A stretch of DNA of 64,000 nt, from contig CAXXDQ010000005.1 in assembly GCA_963664325.2 (NCBI GenBank), forward strand, positions 159,277 to 223,276, read 5' to 3'. Shown one piece after another: positions 6,000-30,522 of this stretch. The notes beneath the pieces were generated by a model, which made no database searches, was not told the origin of the DNA, and saw only the letters and a program-made list of their open reading frames with translations. Numbering within the stretch: the stretch's first letter is position 1; the number at the start of each line of letters is the position of its first letter. The position numbers and the translations under genes were made by a program. The stretch comes from Desulfomonilia bacterium. GTDB taxonomy: Bacteria; Desulfobacterota; Desulfomonilia; UBA1062.

Positions 6000-6032
6000 A
6001 CCCTTCCGGCCTGTTCCCCGACTTTAAATTGC

Positions 6033-6965
6033 CTATTTGTTCCGTGCGAGCGAGATCAGGTACAGGATGTCATGAGCCAGAGTGGCGCCTGCCAGGGCGG
6101 TAATCCGGCCCGGGGAATCGTAAGGCGGGCAGACCTCAACCAGGTCTCCGCCCACGATCTTCAAACCCGCAAGCCCCTTGAGTATCCGCCTTGCCGTGTG
6201 CGTGCTCGGACCGCCTACCACGGGGGTCCCTGTTCCCGGGGCATAGGCCGGATCGAGAAAGTCGATGTCAAAGGTGATGTATGCCGGATGATCACCAACG
6301 ATGCTCCGGATCTTTTCTATTGCAGGTGCGGCGCCGTTTTCCAGAACCCAGTCCGCATGAAGGATATTGAAGCCCTGCGTATCCGGGTTGGGAGTGCGGA
6401 TTCCCAGCTGTATCGAACGGGACGCATCCACGAGCCCTTCCTTCATGGCCAGAAAGAACATGGTACCGTGGTTCAGTTCATCGCCCATGTCCCAGGAATC
6501 CGAGTGCGAATCAAAGTGAATCAGCGAAAGAGGGCCATACTTGTTCGCATGGGCCTTGAGCAGCGGATATGTCACCATGTGATCTCCGCCTAGAGAGAGT
6601 ACGGACAATCCTGCGTCAAGGATTTTTCCGACATGTTCGGCGACTGTGGAGAGCATGCGGTCGGGGTATCCGGGAAAAAACGCCAGGTCGCTGTAGTCGA
6701 TCACGTTGTGACGCTCAAAGACGTTGAATTCCCAGGGCCAGAGCCCCCAGGGGTACATTCCGCTCACGGAAGACTGCTCGCGTATCGCCCTCGGGCCGAA
6801 GCGTGTGCCGGGGCGGTTGGACGTGCTGAGATCGAAAGGGATGCCCACTACGGCGATGTCCGCCCCTGTCAGATCACGAGTGTATTTGCGCCGGGCGAAA
6901 GAGAGCTCCCCCGCATACATGGCGTCATAGATCACCGATTGACTTAAATCATGACCGAGTGGCAT
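6033..6965 (-). CDS. speB: Agmatinase (ureohydrolase)
   Basis: GGDH, DSHSD, FDIDFLDPAYAPGTGTP, DLVEV. Confidence 0.88.
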   Translation of the reverse strand: MPLGHDLSQSVIYDAMYAGELSFARRKYTRDLTGADIAVVGIPFDLSTSNRPGTRFGPRAIREQSSVSGMYPWGLWPWEFNVFERHNVIDYSDLAFFPGYPDRMLSTVAEHVGKILDAGLSVLSLGGDHMVTYPLLKAHANKYGPLSLIHFDSHSDSWDMGDELNHGTMFFLAMKEGLVDASRSIQLGIRTPNPDTQGFNILHADWVLENGAAPAIEKIRSIVGDHPAYITFDIDFLDPAYAPGTGTPVVGGPSTHTARRILKGLAGLKIVGGDLVEVCPPYDSPGRITALAGATLAHDILYLISLARNK

Positions 6966-18237: not shown

Positions 18238-20999
<2,762 letters not shown>

Positions 21000-26097: not shown

Positions 26098-26268
26098 GGC
26101 ATCAGGCGGAATGACAGGTCCGGGAAACGGGCCGACAGGCCTTCCTTGATGCGCTGCCCTATCGCAGTTATGTCGGACAGGGCCATATCCGAGCCGAAAA
26201 CAAGCTCCAGCTCAACAAAGCGCGTATTGCCTCTGCAGCACGTGTAAACCAGCCCGATATTCTCGAAA
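26098..26268 (-). pseudogene. C-terminal fragment of a CDF transporter paralog
   Basis: FENIGLVYTCCRGNTRFVELELVFGSDMALSDITAIGQRIKEGLSARFPDLSFRLMP aligns with the C-terminus of 31733..32689. Confidence 0.85.
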
Positions 26269-26298
26269 AAGAGAGGGCTCAGAGAGGAAGACAAGATA

Positions 26299-26484
26299 AT
26301 GGATGAAAGCAGGAAGAAATTGTGGATGAAGCCGGAACTGACCATACTGGTGCGCAACAAGCCTGAAGAGGCGGTGCTTGCTGCATGCAAAGGCAGTATT
26401 GGCTCAACGTCATTGGCTGTTCAATACAATAACTGCCGTTTTAACGAATGCTCAAACTATTGCACGGATCAGGTAACATCTTAA
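26299..26484 (+). CDS. Cys-rich peptide, putative RiPP precursor, family 1 (61 aa)
   Basis: KKLWMKPELTILVRNKPEEAVLAACK leader; core C-x15-C-x4-C-x3-C-x5-S; GAGG SD. Confidence 0.82.
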   Translation: MDESRKKLWMKPELTILVRNKPEEAVLAACKGSIGSTSLAVQYNNCRFNECSNYCTDQVTS

Positions 26485-26613
26485 GCCGATCTCTCAAGAA
26501 CCGGAACCAGGGAAAGAGCAATAAGTAAAAGGCATTTGTGATCGACAGGACATGGTGACTGGCCTTAATTGTCTCTTTTCAAGGCATGACACCTTGTTCG
26601 CATGAATTGACGC

Positions 26614-26847
26614 CTAAAATCCGATTCCTGTTATATCGCAATAGATCGCAGCAATGTTTCCATTAATCACGCAAAAATCGGCTGAATTGCCATTACTCGT
26701 ACACATATTTCCTGCGGTATTGCCTGTTGAACAGGAATTCACATCACCGCTGCCGGGACCAAAACAATCGCCTTTGCCGCTTTTGTAATCATAGAGGTCA
26801 TATGCATATGGTTTTTCATATATCGGCTTCTGATTCTTTTCTTCCAT
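26614..26847 (-). CDS. Cys/Gly/Asn-rich peptide, putative RiPP precursor, family 2 (77 aa)
   Basis: MEEKNQKPIYEKP..GKG|DC; five Cys at 10-11 residue spacing; AAGGAG SD before ATG 26847. Confidence 0.85.
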   Translation of the reverse strand: MEEKNQKPIYEKPYAYDLYDYKSGKGDCFGPGSGDVNSCSTGNTAGNMCTSNGNSADFCVINGNIAAIYCDITGIGF

Positions 26848-26875
26848 TACCCTCTCCTTTGGAAGTGTTTCTATT

Positions 26876-26904
26876 ATGGTATCAAGATTGCGCAGTGTAA
26901 TCAA
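26876..26904 (-). promoter_or_regulatory. Sigma70-type promoter of peptide 26614..26847
   Basis: TTGATT-N17-TACCAT with TGn extension; both boxes identical in the duplicate copy. Confidence 0.6.
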
Positions 26905-26912
26905 TACATCCG

Positions 26913-26990
26913 TCATATCATGGCGCAGAGCCTGTCTCTGAACGCACCGCAATTCATATCCTTTTTCTCGATTGCCGTAACAGCCGATTT
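26913..26990 (-). pseudogene. 3' remnant of a second glycosyltransferase copy
   Basis: KSAVTAIEKKDMNCGAFRDRLCAMI* parallels the GT C-terminus AAAFAAVEKQDASYRSFSDWLYAMI*. Confidence 0.7.
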
Positions 26991-27024
26991 CTCCTTGTTA
27001 TTTTGCCGTGTTCGTATGAACTTA

Positions 27025-27261
27025 TTACACAATTCCGCTTCCTGGATTACAACTTGACGGAGCGCCGTTTCCATTATCAATACAAATTCCGCTGTCCGAA
27101 TTGCCATTACTCAAGCAATTACCCAGGGCGTGACCGCCTGTTGAACAGAAACTTCCATTGTTGCTGCCGGATTTACAATCATCACCCTTACCGATTTTAT
27201 AATCGTTGAGATGATATACACACGGTTTTTCATATGCCGGCTTCTGGTTCTTTTCTTCCAT
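27025..27261 (-). CDS. Cys/Gly/Asn-rich peptide, putative RiPP precursor, family 2 (78 aa)
   Basis: MEEKNQKPAYEKP..GKG|DDC; five core Cys in Cx2-3G repeats; AAGGAG SD before ATG 27261. Confidence 0.85.
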   Translation of the reverse strand: MEEKNQKPAYEKPCVYHLNDYKIGKGDDCKSGSNNGSFCSTGGHALGNCLSNGNSDSGICIDNGNGAPSSCNPGSGIV

Positions 27262-27289
27262 TATTTTCTCCTTCGGCGGTGTTTCTATT

Positions 27290-27318
27290 ATGGTATCAAG
27301 ATTACACGATGGAATCAA
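27290..27318 (-). promoter_or_regulatory. Sigma70-type promoter of peptide 27025..27261
   Basis: TTGATT-N17-TACCAT with TGn extension. Confidence 0.6.
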
Positions 27319-27326
27319 TACATCTG

Positions 27327-28523
27327 TCATATCATTGCATAGAGCCAGTCACTGAACGAGCGGTAGCTTGCGTCCTGCTTTTCAACGGCCGCAAATGCCG
27401 CTGCCTTTGATATCCCGACGGCACTTTCATAATTGACGGGATCGTCAAGATTCCTGATATGCCTGATGTATTGCATGATCGTACGGGCATGGTATTTCAT
27501 GTTCACGAAGAAATCAGGGGCTTTCCTTGAATCTTCGTTTACTTGAACCAGAAAACCCTCAGGCGGCATCTCCTCTCTTATGCCGCCCGAGTCGTTTGCA
27601 ATAACCGGCAACCCGCTGCATATGCCCTCGACAATAACCCGCGAATACGGCTCCTCCCAGAGAGAGGGGACCAGAAGTATTCTTGTCATTTCATAAATCC
27701 TGCGCACATCCATGTCCCATGGCATGAAGGTTACGTTTGAAAGATTGAATCCTTCAGGGTTGACCACCGTGCCGGGTTTCATGACCAGAAGAAACTTTTT
27801 GTCCTGAAGATTGCTTGCAATGTTCAGAAATATTCCCAGGCCTTTCGCAGGAGAGCCGTTTATCATAGTGATATATTCCCCCGGCGCAGCGGTGGGGGCA
27901 AAATTTTCAAGGCTGATCTGCGGAATGAGGTTAATGCTGTTCTGAGAGTAATACGATCTGAATTTATCCTTTAGAAAACTTCCGGTGCATATGAATTTGA
28001 ACCCGGGTGCGATTTTTCTGAACATTCCGGTATATTTATTGAAACCTTCCTCAAATATCTGCTGATCGCTGATGCGGTGCAGCCTGAGGGGCGAGAAGTT
28101 CAGGCTTGCCTGCATCGAGAATATGTCGGAATTAAGGGTCAGCGTGGCATCGGTTTTCCTGTCTGACAATATATTGCCCCACAAAACCGAAATCCTGTCG
28201 ATTCTGTCTTTGATATTGTGATGGTATGCCTGGTTTATATCAAGACCGGATAAGAAGCATTCGAATGAAAACGGGTATCCTTCGAGATGAAATTTGATTT
28301 TTCCGTTTCCGGGCAAAACAACCCGGCCGCCGATGCTCAGGATATCCCTTGTCAGCCTTTCATGATTAAAGCCTTTATCGGCAAGCCACAAAAAGGAGAC
28401 ATCAAATCCATCCTGTGAAAGCTTTTTAAGGATGGTCAGAACGCTCAATGTCCCCCCTGATGAATTCCTTATGTCAAGATTGCCGGTCATCAGACATGTA
28501 ATGCGCTTTCCAATCATTATCAC
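27327..28523 (-). CDS. Glycosyltransferase family 4 (GT-B)
   Basis: N-terminal SGG, IN..PAKG, LLVPSLWEEPYSRVIVEG...PVIANDSGGIRE (Ex7E). Confidence 0.85.
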   Translation of the reverse strand: MIMIGKRITCLMTGNLDIRNSSGGTLSVLTILKKLSQDGFDVSFLWLADKGFNHERLTRDILSIGGRVVLPGNGKIKFHLEGYPFSFECFLSGLDINQAYHHNIKDRIDRISVLWGNILSDRKTDATLTLNSDIFSMQASLNFSPLRLHRISDQQIFEEGFNKYTGMFRKIAPGFKFICTGSFLKDKFRSYYSQNSINLIPQISLENFAPTAAPGEYITMINGSPAKGLGIFLNIASNLQDKKFLLVMKPGTVVNPEGFNLSNVTFMPWDMDVRRIYEMTRILLVPSLWEEPYSRVIVEGICSGLPVIANDSGGIREEMPPEGFLVQVNEDSRKAPDFFVNMKYHARTIMQYIRHIRNLDDPVNYESAVGISKAAAFAAVEKQDASYRSFSDWLYAMI

Positions 28524-28737: not shown

Positions 28738-30522
28738 GTGTTCATCATGATGCGAAAGCTGACAATATTTGCACTGATCATTCCGGCCTTAATTTTTGCC
28801 GCCTGCAAAAGCGGGATCAGGGTATGGACTGAGCCGTCCACAGAACGGGTCATGCAGTATTCGGTTTCAAAAAAGATCGTCCCGGCGGAAATCTATGCAG
28901 CGCACAACGATTACGAATCCTTCCAGATAGTGATAAACGGCGGTCTCAACGGCCTTACCGGCGTGAATGTAAGTCCGGGCGATCTGACCGGACCCGGCGG
29001 CGCGGTCATCGCCAAGGAAAACATTGCGCTTTACAGGGAATTTTATGTCCATGTCAGCAAGCCTTCATTTCTATTGGGCGTTGTCGGGGATCTCAGGCTT
29101 CCCGGGAACTACCCGGACCCTCTCATCCCGTTCACAGACCCGTACGATCCCGCCCATCCCGCTGTGGGTGCGCCTTTCAAAGTGGACAAGCTCAAGAATC
29201 AGCCGGTATGGGCCGAGGTCTATATCCCTGAAGGCATACCCGCAGGGGAATATATAGGCACGATGACGGTGAGCGCTGACGGTATGAAGCCGGTTGAAAT
29301 TGAAGTAAAGGCGACAGTCTGGGATTTCAGCATCCCGAAGGAAAGGACCGTCTCGACCGCCTATGGCCTTTATGACAGCACCCCGGATAAATTCCATGCA
29401 GCAGGTTCGCTTGCACAAACCCATTATAATTACGAACTGGAGCTCCACAAGCACAGACTTGATGTAACGAGGATCACGGGCCTTGCATCGAATCCTTTCA
29501 GGTTCGGCAGCGACGGCCATCTGCTCCCGGTGGACTGGACCGAGTACGATTCGATAGTCAGCCCCAGGCTCGACGGCAGCTACTATGGCGACGGCATTGG
29601 CATGCACAAGCTGAACGCAGGCTTCTTCCGCCCCGGAAGCGGCGGGTGGCTTGAAACCGGTATCACCGACGATCAGTACAAGGAAGCAGCACGGGAGTTC
29701 GCCCGCCACCTGAAGGAAAAGGGATGGATGGACAGGGTTTACGTTTACTGCCAGGACGAACCGTTCTGGAACAATGTCCCGTATGAAGATCTGGCGTATG
29801 ACATAAGGCTCATGCTCGAGGCCGACCCGGACTGGAAAGGCGCATTCATGGACACAAACTGGTGGGTCAGGGAGCTCGACGGCCTGATAGACATCTGGTG
29901 CCCCGAAGTCACGAAGTATGAAGGCTGGCTGACCGCCGGCATCCTCGATTTCGCCGGAAGGGATGAATACGACAATATGCGGGCCAGAGGCGAAAACCTC
30001 TGGTTCTATGTATGCAACGCGACCGTGCCGCCGTATGCCGGTTACGATATAGACACCATGATAGCTTACGAGCCCCGCATCATGATGTGGGGCGCCTGGT
30101 ATGAAAAGGCGGTGGGCTTTCTTTACTGGTGCACGACCGCCTGGAAGGAGGTCAACCCGTGGGAAGATCCTCTCGCTTTCCCGATATGCCCGAGAAACGG
30201 CGATGGTTTCCTTTTCTATCCCGGCGATCATAACGGGACGGCCGCGCCCGTGGGCTCCCCGGAAGAGGTCTCAATCAACGGGCCGGTGACTTCGATCAGG
30301 CTTAAGCAGACTAGAGACGGCCTTGAAGACTGGGAGATGTTCAAGATAGCCGCCAGTATCGCAGGCGAGGACGCCGTAAGAGATGCGGTTTCAAAGGCAT
30401 ACACGCAGCTCGGGACTGCGCCGGTTCTGGGGATATGGAATCCTCTCAGCCCGCCGTGGACGCATGATGGAAAGGTCATCGAAGAAGTGAGAAAAGAAGT
30501 CGCTTCTTTGATATGCAGGTAA
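28738..30522 (+). CDS. DUF4091/GH123-like glycoside hydrolase lipoprotein
   Basis: Lipobox FAAC; NDYESFQ, PDPLIP, QDEP, WFYVC, GFLYW, GDGFLFYPG, SIRLKQTRDGLEDWE. Confidence 0.75.
   Translation: MFIMMRKLTIFALIIPALIFAACKSGIRVWTEPSTERVMQYSVSKKIVPAEIYAAHNDYESFQIVINGGLNGLTGVNVSPGDLTGPGGAVIAKENIALYREFYVHVSKPSFLLGVVGDLRLPGNYPDPLIPFTDPYDPAHPAVGAPFKVDKLKNQPVWAEVYIPEGIPAGEYIGTMTVSADGMKPVEIEVKATVWDFSIPKERTVSTAYGLYDSTPDKFHAAGSLAQTHYNYELELHKHRLDVTRITGLASNPFRFGSDGHLLPVDWTEYDSIVSPRLDGSYYGDGIGMHKLNAGFFRPGSGGWLETGITDDQYKEAAREFARHLKEKGWMDRVYVYCQDEPFWNNVPYEDLAYDIRLMLEADPDWKGAFMDTNWWVRELDGLIDIWCPEVTKYEGWLTAGILDFAGRDEYDNMRARGENLWFYVCNATVPPYAGYDIDTMIAYEPRIMMWGAWYEKAVGFLYWCTTAWKEVNPWEDPLAFPICPRNGDGFLFYPGDHNGTAAPVGSPEEVSINGPVTSIRLKQTRDGLEDWEMFKIAASIAGEDAVRDAVSKAYTQLGTAPVLGIWNPLSPPWTHDGKVIEEVRKEVASLICR

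Follow-up and report, generated by a model that had tools for sequence, protein, structure and literature searches.

The stretch of DNA analysed here (hereafter the window) comprises 64,000 nucleotides of a Desulfomonilia bacterium (assembly GCA_963664325.2, contig CAXXDQ010000005.1, positions 159,277 to 223,276). Its 223-kb contig is named C5 below, in contrast to the other contigs C3, C4 and C7 of the same genome, itself labelled G000. On the minus strand, the window contains two neighbouring small genes encoding cysteine-repeat peptides that follow a glycosyltransferase gene. In window positions, the features are:

27327..28523 (-), GT4-type (GT-B, Glycos_transf_1) glycosyltransferase, single-copy in the genome, whose stop lies 65 nt upstream of the pepB start
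27262..27326 (-), conserved 65-nt spacer between the GT4 stop and the pepB start, holding a conserved ATGTATTGATT..N..TTGATACCATAA block and an AAGGAG putative Shine-Dalgarno, possibly the peptide's own promoter and short 5' UTR
27025..27261 (-), pepB, 78-aa paralog of pepA (55-57% identical, depending on the method)
26913..27008 (-), about 96 nt of non-coding remnant homologous to the 3' end of the GT4 gene (approximate boundaries, read off the alignment)
26848..26912 (-), the same conserved upstream block and putative Shine-Dalgarno in front of pepA
26614..26847 (-), pepA, 77-aa precursor-like peptide

Peptide family and organisation of the locus

The initial annotation had described two peptides that share a leader and carry five regularly spaced Cys units, and this observation is correct. 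Both peptides begin with MEEKNQKPxYEKP and reach GKGD(D)C, with Cys at positions 28/39/49/59/70 in pepA (gaps 11/10/10/11) and 29/39/49/60/71 in pepB (gaps 10/10/11/11). The leader of pepA covers about residues 1-26 (KPxYEKP...L...GKG) and its core ends in GIGF. However, pepB has an additional leader Cys at position 14 that was not mentioned, and the five units, which had been treated as alike, are not: the first is C-x-(P)-G-S-G-D (C-K-S-G-S-N-N in pepB), whereas the later ones are C-x2-3-G-N-x-A. pepB departs from the family-conserved motifs, with GSNN where the family has GSGD and GGHA where it has GN(S/T)A.

The pattern is far beyond chance. Six further paralogous frames, one of them broken by a stop, lie in the same genome, and 60 proteins match at E<=0.01 in a search of 5.8 billion clusters. 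An exhaustive profile search returned 1795 representatives at E<=1e-3 and 233 at E<=1e-10, although at least one spurious repeat protein (P0076) is among the top hits. The family profile scores pepA and pepB at E 9.4e-24 and 4.4e-19, respectively. No Pfam or NCBIfam model matches the peptides and, for the two window peptides, no NCBIfam family (SCIFF or other curated precursor model) matched at E<=1. A search for related loci with pepA alone returned 4 loci, all short partial matches of 13-33 residues and none a real relative, and ESM Atlas gave only 'hypothetical protein' clusters at 0.88, under the 0.9 lead threshold.

Conservation of Cys spacing across homologs, the loss of which had been named as a refuting condition, and dN/dS between copies, named as a check, were examined. 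In 185 members of <=130 aa aligned to the profile, four core Cys columns and the Gly after each are kept in 181-185, and 682 of 722 successive Cys-Cys gaps are 8-12 residues, 613 being exactly 10 or 11. In the same alignment, Y14 is kept in 174 members, P17 in 184, G30 in 180 and C32 in 185, and position 28 is G/A/S/V in 176. Among the copies compared, dN/dS is 0.09-0.29 in the leader (0.09-0.20 for pepA against the other copies) and 0.42-1.54 in the core (1.08-1.54 for pepB against the other copies), with Cys and Gly retained, the counts being small (27-35 synonymous sites). Cys spacing and Gly are kept while other residues vary.

Each window gene has an AAGGAG motif, read as a Shine-Dalgarno, 7-8 nt before the ATG. 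The upstream block was identified in an alignment of five copies from three species (77% mean column identity); a generic sigma-70 promoter/terminator scan of positions 26200-27500 found no more sites than in shuffles (2 found against 3.0 expected), so that the promoter role is inferred from conservation only. In this alignment, the region upstream of pepA aligns with the GT4 3' coding ends preceding pepB and the peptides of genomes G407 and G408, which shows that pepA arose by tandem duplication of a unit made of the GT4 3' end, the spacer and the peptide gene. The same kind of remnant (26 aa at 54% identity) lies before the copy on contig C4. Among the sequencing runs listed for this sequence no RNA run was found, and the four listed belong to one study and may be the source sample.

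Association with the SynChlorMet cassette and a GT4 glycosyltransferase

The initial annotation proposed a resemblance to peptides found near SynChlorMet (Scm) radical SAM cassettes, and this is now verified for the family; membership was defined operationally, by sequence homology to peptides encoded inside or beside ScmD-ScmE-ScmF-ScmC cassettes. The window peptides match paralogs on contig C7 (tblastn E 4.7e-4 to 0.02; profile E 1e-20 to 1e-23; 32-38% identity to the cassette-adjacent peptides), with which leader and Cys/Gly columns are shared. The C7 paralogs lie directly upstream of genes whose best NCBIfam hits are, by far, ScmE (TIGR04250, 391.7 bits against a cut-off of 400), ScmF (TIGR04251, 313.6 against 400) and ScmC (TIGR04249, 153.7, over its cut-off of 125). 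The two radical SAM/SPASM proteins have secondary hits to StsB, AlbA, PapB and PqqE. The ScmC gene, which encodes an HprK-related P-loop protein (weak TIGR04352 hit), is fused to a SipW-like signal peptidase I domain (TIGR02228, 60.6 bits) that carries an SMNPT box. Two PqqD-family genes sit in the same cluster (Pfam 50.2 and 34.9 bits), with ScmD (TIGR04248) as best NCBIfam hit at 54.4 and 21.7 bits against a cut-off of 100. That ScmE, ScmF and ScmD of this genome score below the curated cut-offs speaks against the reading proposed below. ScmE orthologs in the genus score 411.5 and 402.2 (over the cut-off) and 390.4 (under).

Of 400 other genomes of the phylum, 29 have the peptide, 35 have an ScmE-like gene at E<=1e-40 and 25 have both, the two lying within 5 kb in 17 of those 25; related genomes are not independent observations. 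Four of the 29 peptide-positive genomes lacked an ScmE-like hit; their completeness is 62-99%, and the one match in the 99%-complete genome (G283) was itself weak (E 9.4e-4). Conversely, 10 of the 35 ScmE-positive genomes lacked a peptide hit. All 3 other species of the genus have a peptide within about 300 bp of ScmE. ScmE, ScmF and a peptide were found in all of 19 loci examined, which shows cassette composition and not association since these loci were chosen for peptide-ScmE proximity. In many lineages, peptide genes sit between or beside ScmD, ScmE, ScmF and a peptidase, and this is also the case in a metagenome contig whose four Scm proteins all score over cut-off.

In contrast, the window copies themselves have no radical SAM gene nearby: none of the 10 ORFs scanned between positions 18238 and 34694 has a radical SAM or SPASM domain, and no SPASM hit lies on contig C5. 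The gene most tightly linked to them, missed by the initial annotation, is the GT4 glycosyltransferase directly upstream. It matches PF13692 (42 bits, cut-off 27) and PF00534 (35.2 bits, cut-off 26.4), and the residues of the E-x7-E motif, the GT4 signature, are invariant in a 7-sequence alignment (E289 and E297). Only the C-terminal donor-binding half resembles known GT4 enzymes: residues 1-220 have no Pfam hit (including the N-terminal acceptor domains PF13439/PF13579), and PDB profile hits cover only positions ~213-338. The predicted fold of the N-terminal half is alpha/beta, and Foldseek hits are to GT-B/GT4 enzymes, but these come from a mediocre model (pLDDT 63.7, pTM 0.46, from 7 sequences) which confirms only a generic fold and cannot tell the acceptor.

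This glycosyltransferase is rare, with only 14 relatives in 5.8 billion clusters, and is present in exactly the 3 of 52 genomes of the order that carry this peptide subfamily. In all 6 contexts recovered for the GT4 family (the window, genomes G407 and G408, and loci L169, L088 and L170), a family peptide gene starts 3-67 nt after the GT4 stop. The surrounding genes differ between the window and G407/G408, so the pair moves as a unit. L170 is a complete cassette that reads ScmD (128.8 bits), ScmE (558.9), ScmF (539.4), GT4, peptide, ScmC (291.9), signal peptidase and ABC, all four Scm scores being over their cut-offs. L088 reads ScmD (122.3 bits), GT4, peptide, then an epimerase/dehydratase and ScmC (255.3 bits) on the opposite strand. 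The L170 and L088 peptides align to the family profile at 95% and 89% hhalign probability. However, the GT4 was absent from all 19 other Scm loci examined, so it is an accessory enzyme and not a core one, and in G408 the GT4 is intact whereas its peptide has an in-frame TAA after the second core Cys, so that the enzyme may have another substrate.

Proposed pathway and alternative explanations

We propose, with moderate confidence, that pepA and pepB are ribosomal precursor peptides (RiPP precursors) of the family that serves the Scm cassette, and that they form a genus-restricted subfamily physically coupled to a rare GT4 glycosyltransferase instead of to the radical SAM genes, probably modified by the GT4 in cis and by the Scm radical SAM enzymes in trans. 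What our analysis establishes is the gene content, the conservation pattern and the linkage; the Shine-Dalgarno reading, expression and every biochemical step, including leader binding by ScmD, modification by ScmE/ScmF and glycosylation, are inferred, and action in trans is assumed. In this view, each peptide gene would be translated from a strong Shine-Dalgarno site and probably transcribed from its own conserved upstream element, and the conserved leader ([K/R]-P-x-Y-E-x-P-[K/R]-x-x-x-L) would be bound by the PqqD-like chaperone ScmD. The upstream GT4 would add a sugar to the core, and ScmE and ScmF, encoded on C7, would modify the units C-x2-3-G-(N/S)-(S/T)-A, the most likely modification, by analogy with sacti- and ranthipeptide maturases, being an intramolecular Cys thioether in each unit. 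The peptidase domain fused to ScmC would then remove the leader after the near-invariant small-x-Gly motif (G-K-G in the window peptides), just before the first core Cys; the residues at position 28 fit the small -3/-1 rule of type I signal peptidases, from which this cleavage site is inferred. A complex prediction of the C7 ScmD-like protein with pepA scored 0.27 against a mark of 0.32, without controls, and is used as evidence neither way.

The interpretation given in the initial annotation is thus partly supported: the peptides look like RiPP precursors with a conserved leader and repeated Cys units, but nothing here shows the Cys-to-Asn/Ser/Thr thioether or the five-ring product that it suggested, which are inferred only from the enzyme class.

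Other explanations were considered. It is possible, although less likely, that the window peptides are substrates of the adjacent glycosyltransferase alone, giving an S- or O-glycosylated, possibly disulfide-bonded peptide that works like a glycocin, while the C7 radical SAM enzymes would serve only their own adjacent peptides. Indeed, the GT4 and the peptide travel as a two-gene unit without radical SAM genes in three species, the window subfamily is only distantly similar to the cassette-adjacent peptides, and in L088 no radical SAM gene lies within the 9.3 kb examined around the ScmD-GT4-peptide group, the ScmE/ScmF pair of that genome, with its own ScmD, lying on another contig; both contigs nevertheless end near the genes concerned, so that separation there is not proven. 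On the other hand, the GT4 homolog of L170 sits between ScmF and the peptide, the leader motif and the Cys/Gly scaffold conserved wherever ScmE/F are adjacent are fully kept in the window peptides, and all three GT4-bearing species of the genus also keep an Scm cassette.

It is improbable that one or both peptides are non-functional leftovers of duplication. pepB, with its lost motifs and a core dN/dS above 1, may be decaying, and the family decays elsewhere: the C7 copy and the G408 copy carry an in-frame TAA, the C4 copy has lost its GT4 and several matches in other genomes contain stops. However, both window frames are open with intact ATG and putative Shine-Dalgarno sites, leader dN/dS shows purifying selection on all copies compared, all five core Cys and the following Gly are retained in both peptides, and a high core dN/dS with a fixed scaffold is the usual pattern of diversifying RiPP cores. 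Least likely are unmodified Cys-rich peptides (for example metal-binding or disulfide-rich) that merely co-occur with the cassette. The regularly spaced Cys, a ZnuABC-like transporter next to the Scm cassette in this genus and a cation-efflux (CDF) gene 4.5 kb from the window peptides might suggest such a role, or a metallophore. However, the ZnuABC neighbourhood is conserved only within the genus and not in the other 16 phylum loci or in L088, L166 (a further locus) and L170, for which reason a general metallophore link was rejected; peptide genes accompany the Scm genes in many lineages, and the most conserved part is the N-terminal leader and not the Cys-rich part, which is not expected for a metal-binding peptide.

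Relation to described systems

The Scm cassette has been defined by curators (NCBIfam/TIGRFAMs) through its enzymes alone, and the family descriptions reportedly state that the precursor was not identified. Full-text literature searches found no paper on it, although subscription-journal papers and supplements lay outside their reach and an existing description of the family cannot be excluded. Identification of its proposed precursor family gives a clear leader motif, a predicted cleavage site and a repeated 10-11-residue Cys unit, which turns an orphan cassette into a directly testable biosynthetic system. The window copies differ in being detached from the cassette and coupled to a GT4 that is not part of its definition, which points to an undescribed kind of modified natural peptide. 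The system also shows how RiPP precursor genes can disperse as orphans (the window, C4, C3 and a second C7 site) away from their maturases, and such genes are missed by cluster-based genome mining. A bolder and tentative reading is that this family is the long-missing substrate of the Scm cassette, and that the window shows an undescribed branch in which a dedicated GT4, perhaps guided by a PqqD-like recognition protein as the L088 arrangement suggests, glycosylates a multi-Cys-repeat peptide also cross-linked by two radical SAM/SPASM enzymes. The product would be a glycosylated, poly-cyclic RiPP of a new class, whose scattered precursor genes share one enzyme set.

Sactipeptides and ranthipeptides (maturases AlbA, StsB, PapB and the SCIFF maturase) are similar in involving SPASM-domain radical SAM enzymes, a PqqD-like recognition protein and Cys-rich substrates, such as the repeated Cys-x3-Asp units of freyrasin. 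In G000 such enzymes and PqqD-like proteins are present and linked to the peptide family, though not adjacent to the window copies; the repeat unit (C-x2-3-G-N-S-A with a 10-11 residue period) is different, the cassette adds ScmC, a SipW-like peptidase and, in some lineages, a GT4, and any thioether remains hypothetical. In glycocins (sublancin, glycocin F), a small Cys-containing ribosomal peptide is likewise encoded next to a dedicated glycosyltransferase, but glycocin transferases are GT2 (GT-A fold) enzymes whereas the enzyme found here is GT4/GT-B, making it a candidate peptide glycosyltransferase of a fold class not used by the known glycocins; in addition, a PqqD-like partner and radical SAM enzymes occur in the same system. 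The GT4 protein O-glycosyltransferases acting on serine-rich repeats (GtfA/GtfB, SdgB) and the thiol-directed GT4 enzymes MshA, BshA and LmbT appear among the Foldseek hits (ranks 9-34), which shows that GT4 enzymes can take Ser-rich protein repeats or thiols as acceptors, but the similarity is generic (TM 0.33-0.46) and does not indicate functional equivalence. Finally, TIGR04157, a GT4 that curators associate with the GG-Bacteroidales radical SAM peptide system, does not include the window GT4, which scores only 18.2 bits against a 400-bit cut-off.

Gene content of the window locus and paralogous copies in the same genome

Two small ORFs lie on the minus strand of the window, in the following genetic context:

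26614-26847 (-): pepA, 77 aa
27025-27261 (-): pepB, 78 aa
27327-28523 (-): 398-aa ORF carrying the Pfam domains Glyco_trans_1_4 and Glycos_transf_1, and so a GT4-type glycosyltransferase, directly upstream of pepB at a distance of 65 nt
28738-30522 (+): GH123-family glycoside hydrolase
26299-26484 (+): a second small Cys-containing peptide type, converging tail-to-tail on pepA

Both peptides start with MEEKNQKPxYEKP and reach GKGD(D)C, and they are 55-57% identical, depending on the method. Cys falls at 28/39/49/59/70 in pepA and at 29/39/49/60/71 in pepB, which has an additional leader Cys14. Each gene is preceded by AAGGAG, 7-8 nt before the ATG. The observation made in the initial annotation, namely two peptides with a common leader and five regularly spaced Cys units, is therefore confirmed. 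The other neighbours scanned (the GH123 hydrolase, a CDF transporter, a carboxylesterase, an amino-acid permease, an acyltransferase-3 and a UvrA-like protein) show no radical SAM domain, and none of the eight SPASM hits of the genome (hereafter G000) is located on the window's contig, C5. The GH123 gene is transcribed divergently from the GT4 gene but is not conserved next to it in two other species, G407 and G408, and is probably unrelated. The converging peptide, probably the "family 1" of the initial annotation, has a W-x-K-P-x-L...KPEE-x-VL-x-x-CK leader and a paralog on contig C2 (C2:160028-160231 (-), corresponding to positions 6029-6232 of the extracted locus L015). It hits no Pfam or NCBIfam family, and the C2 paralog has no radical SAM neighbour among the ORFs listed over 5.5 kb (L015 3500-9000).

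A tblastn and a profile search of the genome found six further copies of the pepA/pepB type. A close copy on contig C4 is 58% identical, starts with GTG and has five Cys; three tandem copies on contig C7 are 32-38% identical, one of them with an in-frame TAA; and single copies lie at a second C7 site and on contig C3. All share the leader (K/R-P-x-Y-E-x-P...L), a G-x-G-x-C junction, a G-S-G-D unit and then repeated C-x2-3-G-N-x-A units.

The three C7 copies sit directly upstream of a full enzyme set. The best NCBIfam hits of these proteins are ScmE (391.7 bits, just under the cut-off of 400), ScmF (313.6 bits, under 400) and ScmC (153.7 bits, over its cut-off of 125), the latter being fused to a SipW/archaeal-type signal peptidase I domain (60.6 bits, over cut-off). 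ScmC has a weak HprK-related P-loop hit. Two PqqD-family ORFs lie in the cluster (Pfam, 50.2 and 34.9 bits) and have ScmD as best NCBIfam hit, but under cut-off. The resemblance to peptides of SynChlorMet (Scm) cassettes suggested in the initial annotation was thus right for the family, although it does not hold for the position of the window copies themselves. This cassette (locus L011, C7:472000-484000) carries debris from an internal duplication at L011 7780-8100 and 8394-8684, with fragments of a second PqqD-like gene between the peptide genes and the peptide copy broken by the in-frame TAA, whereas the three sister species have the simpler order PqqD_b, peptide, PqqD_a, ScmE, ScmF, ScmC-peptidase.

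The wider peptide family and its association with Scm genes

Neither Pfam nor NCBIfam has a model that matches any of these peptides. A word-indexed profile search of 5.8 billion clusters gave 60 proteins at E<=0.01, all unnamed or called "hypothetical protein", and an exhaustive profile search of 1.84 billion representatives gave 1795 at E<=1e-3 and 233 at E<=1e-10, although at least one top hit, the 816-aa protein P0076, is a spurious tandem-repeat protein. We compared 189 sequences, consisting of the 150 best of the exhaustive search and those of the word-indexed search, of which 185 are <=130 aa. In these 185, 682 of 722 successive Cys-Cys gaps are 8-12 residues and 613 are exactly 10 or 11, and most members have 4-6 core Cys. 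When aligned to the profile, Y14 is kept in 174, P17 in 184, L22 in 145, G30 in 180 and C32 in all 185; G35, C42, G45, C52 and G56 are each kept in all 185, S36 in 181, C63 in 182 and G67 in 181. Ala closes the units in 174, 157 and 100 of 185. Cys spacing that was not conserved across homologs had been set beforehand as a ground for rejecting the observation; since the spacing is conserved, the observation stands.

In a sample of 400 other genomes of the phylum, 29 had a peptide match at E<=1e-3, 35 had an ScmE-like match at E<=1e-40 (20 of these over the curated cut-off) and 25 had both; these are given as plain counts, as related genomes are not independent. Four peptide-positive genomes lacked ScmE (completeness 90, 62, 88 and 99%), and the match in the 99%-complete genome, G283, was itself weak (E 9.4e-4). 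Conversely, ten ScmE-positive genomes lacked a peptide hit. In 17 of the 25 genomes, a peptide lies within 5 kb of ScmE on the same contig; in 7 they lie on different contigs, mostly in fragmented assemblies, and in 1 they lie 326 kb apart, the peptide match in this case containing a stop. All three other species of the genus have a peptide within about 300 bp of ScmE. Counting G000, 36 of 401 sampled genomes of the phylum in which our genome set places it carry an ScmE-like gene at E<=1e-40, whereas the records of the congeneric MAGs with the GT4-peptide pair (L086 and L087) are filed as "uncultured Bacteriovoracaceae bacterium", a label which may be unreliable.

We examined 19 loci in detail, all chosen because the peptide and ScmE were close. 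ScmE, ScmF and a peptide were present in all 19, a PqqD-like gene in most and ScmC or a peptidase in 11, while the window's GT4 was present in none. A ZnuABC-like metal ABC uptake system lies directly beside the Scm cassette in all four species of the genus (L011 9229-11855 and the orthologous parts of the loci L064, L081 and L082), but was not found in the other 16 phylum loci or in the loci L088, L166 and L170.

Linkage of the peptides to a rare GT4-type glycosyltransferase

The GT4 is single-copy in G000 and, in the 52 genomes of the order, occurs in exactly three (G000, G407 and G408), the same three that carry the MEEK-type peptide subfamily. In G407 and G408, the ortholog (77-78% identical) is followed after 67 nt by one peptide, and none of the other window genes queried is found nearby in either species, so the pair travels as a unit. 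In G408 the peptide has an in-frame TAA after the second core Cys, while the GT4 is intact. The G407 locus is syntenic with the C4 locus of G000: both hold an enolase-superfamily-like gene, two amidohydrolase-like genes and an epimerase-like gene, as judged by similarity of the translations and not by a family scan. At C4 only a 26-aa remnant of the GT4 3' end survives before the peptide, and the same remnant precedes pepA in the window. The C4-type site therefore looks ancestral, and the window pair looks like a relocated copy in which the unit of GT4 3' end, spacer and peptide was duplicated in tandem.

The GT4 family is rare, with 14 relatives at E<=1e-5 in 5.8 billion clusters, of which seven, counting the window's own protein, align over 97-99% of the query at >=39% identity. 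Three contexts were recovered outside the genomes of the order searched. L169, a metagenome contig with a GT4 fragment 86% identical to the window enzyme, has the same arrangement and a 76-aa peptide with Cys at 28/39/49/60/70. L088, from a MAG filed as Candidatus Saganbacteria, reads ScmD (122.3 bits, over cut-off), GT4 (39% identical), a 3-nt gap, a 66-aa peptide, then an NAD-dependent epimerase/dehydratase and ScmC (255.3 bits) on the other strand; the ScmD-ScmE-ScmF genes of that genome lie on another contig. L170, a sediment metagenome contig, reads a UDP-xylose-synthase-like gene (283.8 bits against 294), a second GT4, ScmD (128.8), ScmE (558.9), ScmF (539.4), the GT4 homolog (40% identical), a 12-nt gap, a 59-aa peptide, ScmC (291.9), a signal peptidase and an ABC protein. 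The L170 and L088 peptides align to the family profile with hhalign probabilities of 95.2% and 89.2%, respectively. A second, more divergent peptide with the K-Y-E-K-P-E-L leader type and three Cys lies 4.6 kb downstream of the L170 cassette on the opposite strand (L170 11971-12144 (-)), in a part of the contig with masked letters.

In 6 of 6 recovered contexts, a family peptide immediately follows the GT4, and in two of them Scm proteins flank it. The window's GT4 is therefore best read as an accessory tailoring enzyme of the Scm peptide pathway. NAD-dependent epimerase/dehydratase-type genes recur near family peptides (L013 5787-7314, i.e. C7:899787-901314; L012 2223-3233; L062 11850-12860; L088 3591-4556; L170 145-1194). 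One lies about 300 nt after the second C7 orphan peptide, one about 3 kb from the C4 and G407 copies and one next to the L088 peptide, and the gene in L170 is the UDP-xylose-synthase-like one. Only the L088 and L170 genes were scanned against family libraries. This recurrence may hint at the sugar donor or may be coincidence.

Inferred maturation pathway and evolutionary signature

What our analysis establishes is the gene content, the linkage between the peptides, the GT4 and the Scm genes, and the conservation pattern; every biochemical step of the pathway is inferred. In this view, the leader would be bound by ScmD and the Cys units would be modified by ScmE/ScmF, a thioether being the most likely outcome because the secondary hits are to StsB, AlbA, PapB and PqqE. 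The GT4 would glycosylate the peptide; nucleotide-sugar-modifying genes lie near the GT4 in L088 and L170. Leader removal would be carried out by the SipW-like peptidase after the small-x-Gly motif: position 28 is small in 176 of 185 members and position 30 is G or A in 184 of 185, which fits the -3/-1 rule for type I signal peptidases. We have high confidence that these peptides are Scm-family RiPP precursors and moderate confidence in the full proposed pathway, with the GT4 acting in cis and the radical SAM enzymes in trans, whereas the proposal that the cross-links are thioethers remains tentative. The interpretation put forward in the initial annotation, that each unit is a repeated modification site, for example for a thioether formed by a radical SAM enzyme, is supported only in part.

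As RiPP-precursor-like, putative substrates for an already known enzyme class, the peptides are not categorically new, but the precursor family, its repeat architecture and the coupling to a GT4 appear undescribed. Literature searches on the SynChlorMet cassette, on ScmE (TIGR04250) as a radical SAM protein and on SPASM proteins with precursor peptides in Syntrophobacter found no paper, subscription journals and supplements being outside their reach, and broader searches returned only general RiPP mining papers and reviews.

About 65 nt upstream of each start codon are conserved in five copies from three species, although a generic sigma-70 scan does not single them out. Pairwise Nei-Gojobori estimates among pepA, pepB, the C4 copy and the G407 copy gave a dN/dS of 0.09-0.29 for the leader and of 0.42-1.54 for the core, in which the Cys/Gly scaffold is kept; the number of sites is small, at 13-35 synonymous sites per partition. 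This is the pattern expected of a RiPP precursor, with a conserved recognition leader and a diversifying core. Of the copies compared, pepB is the most aberrant.
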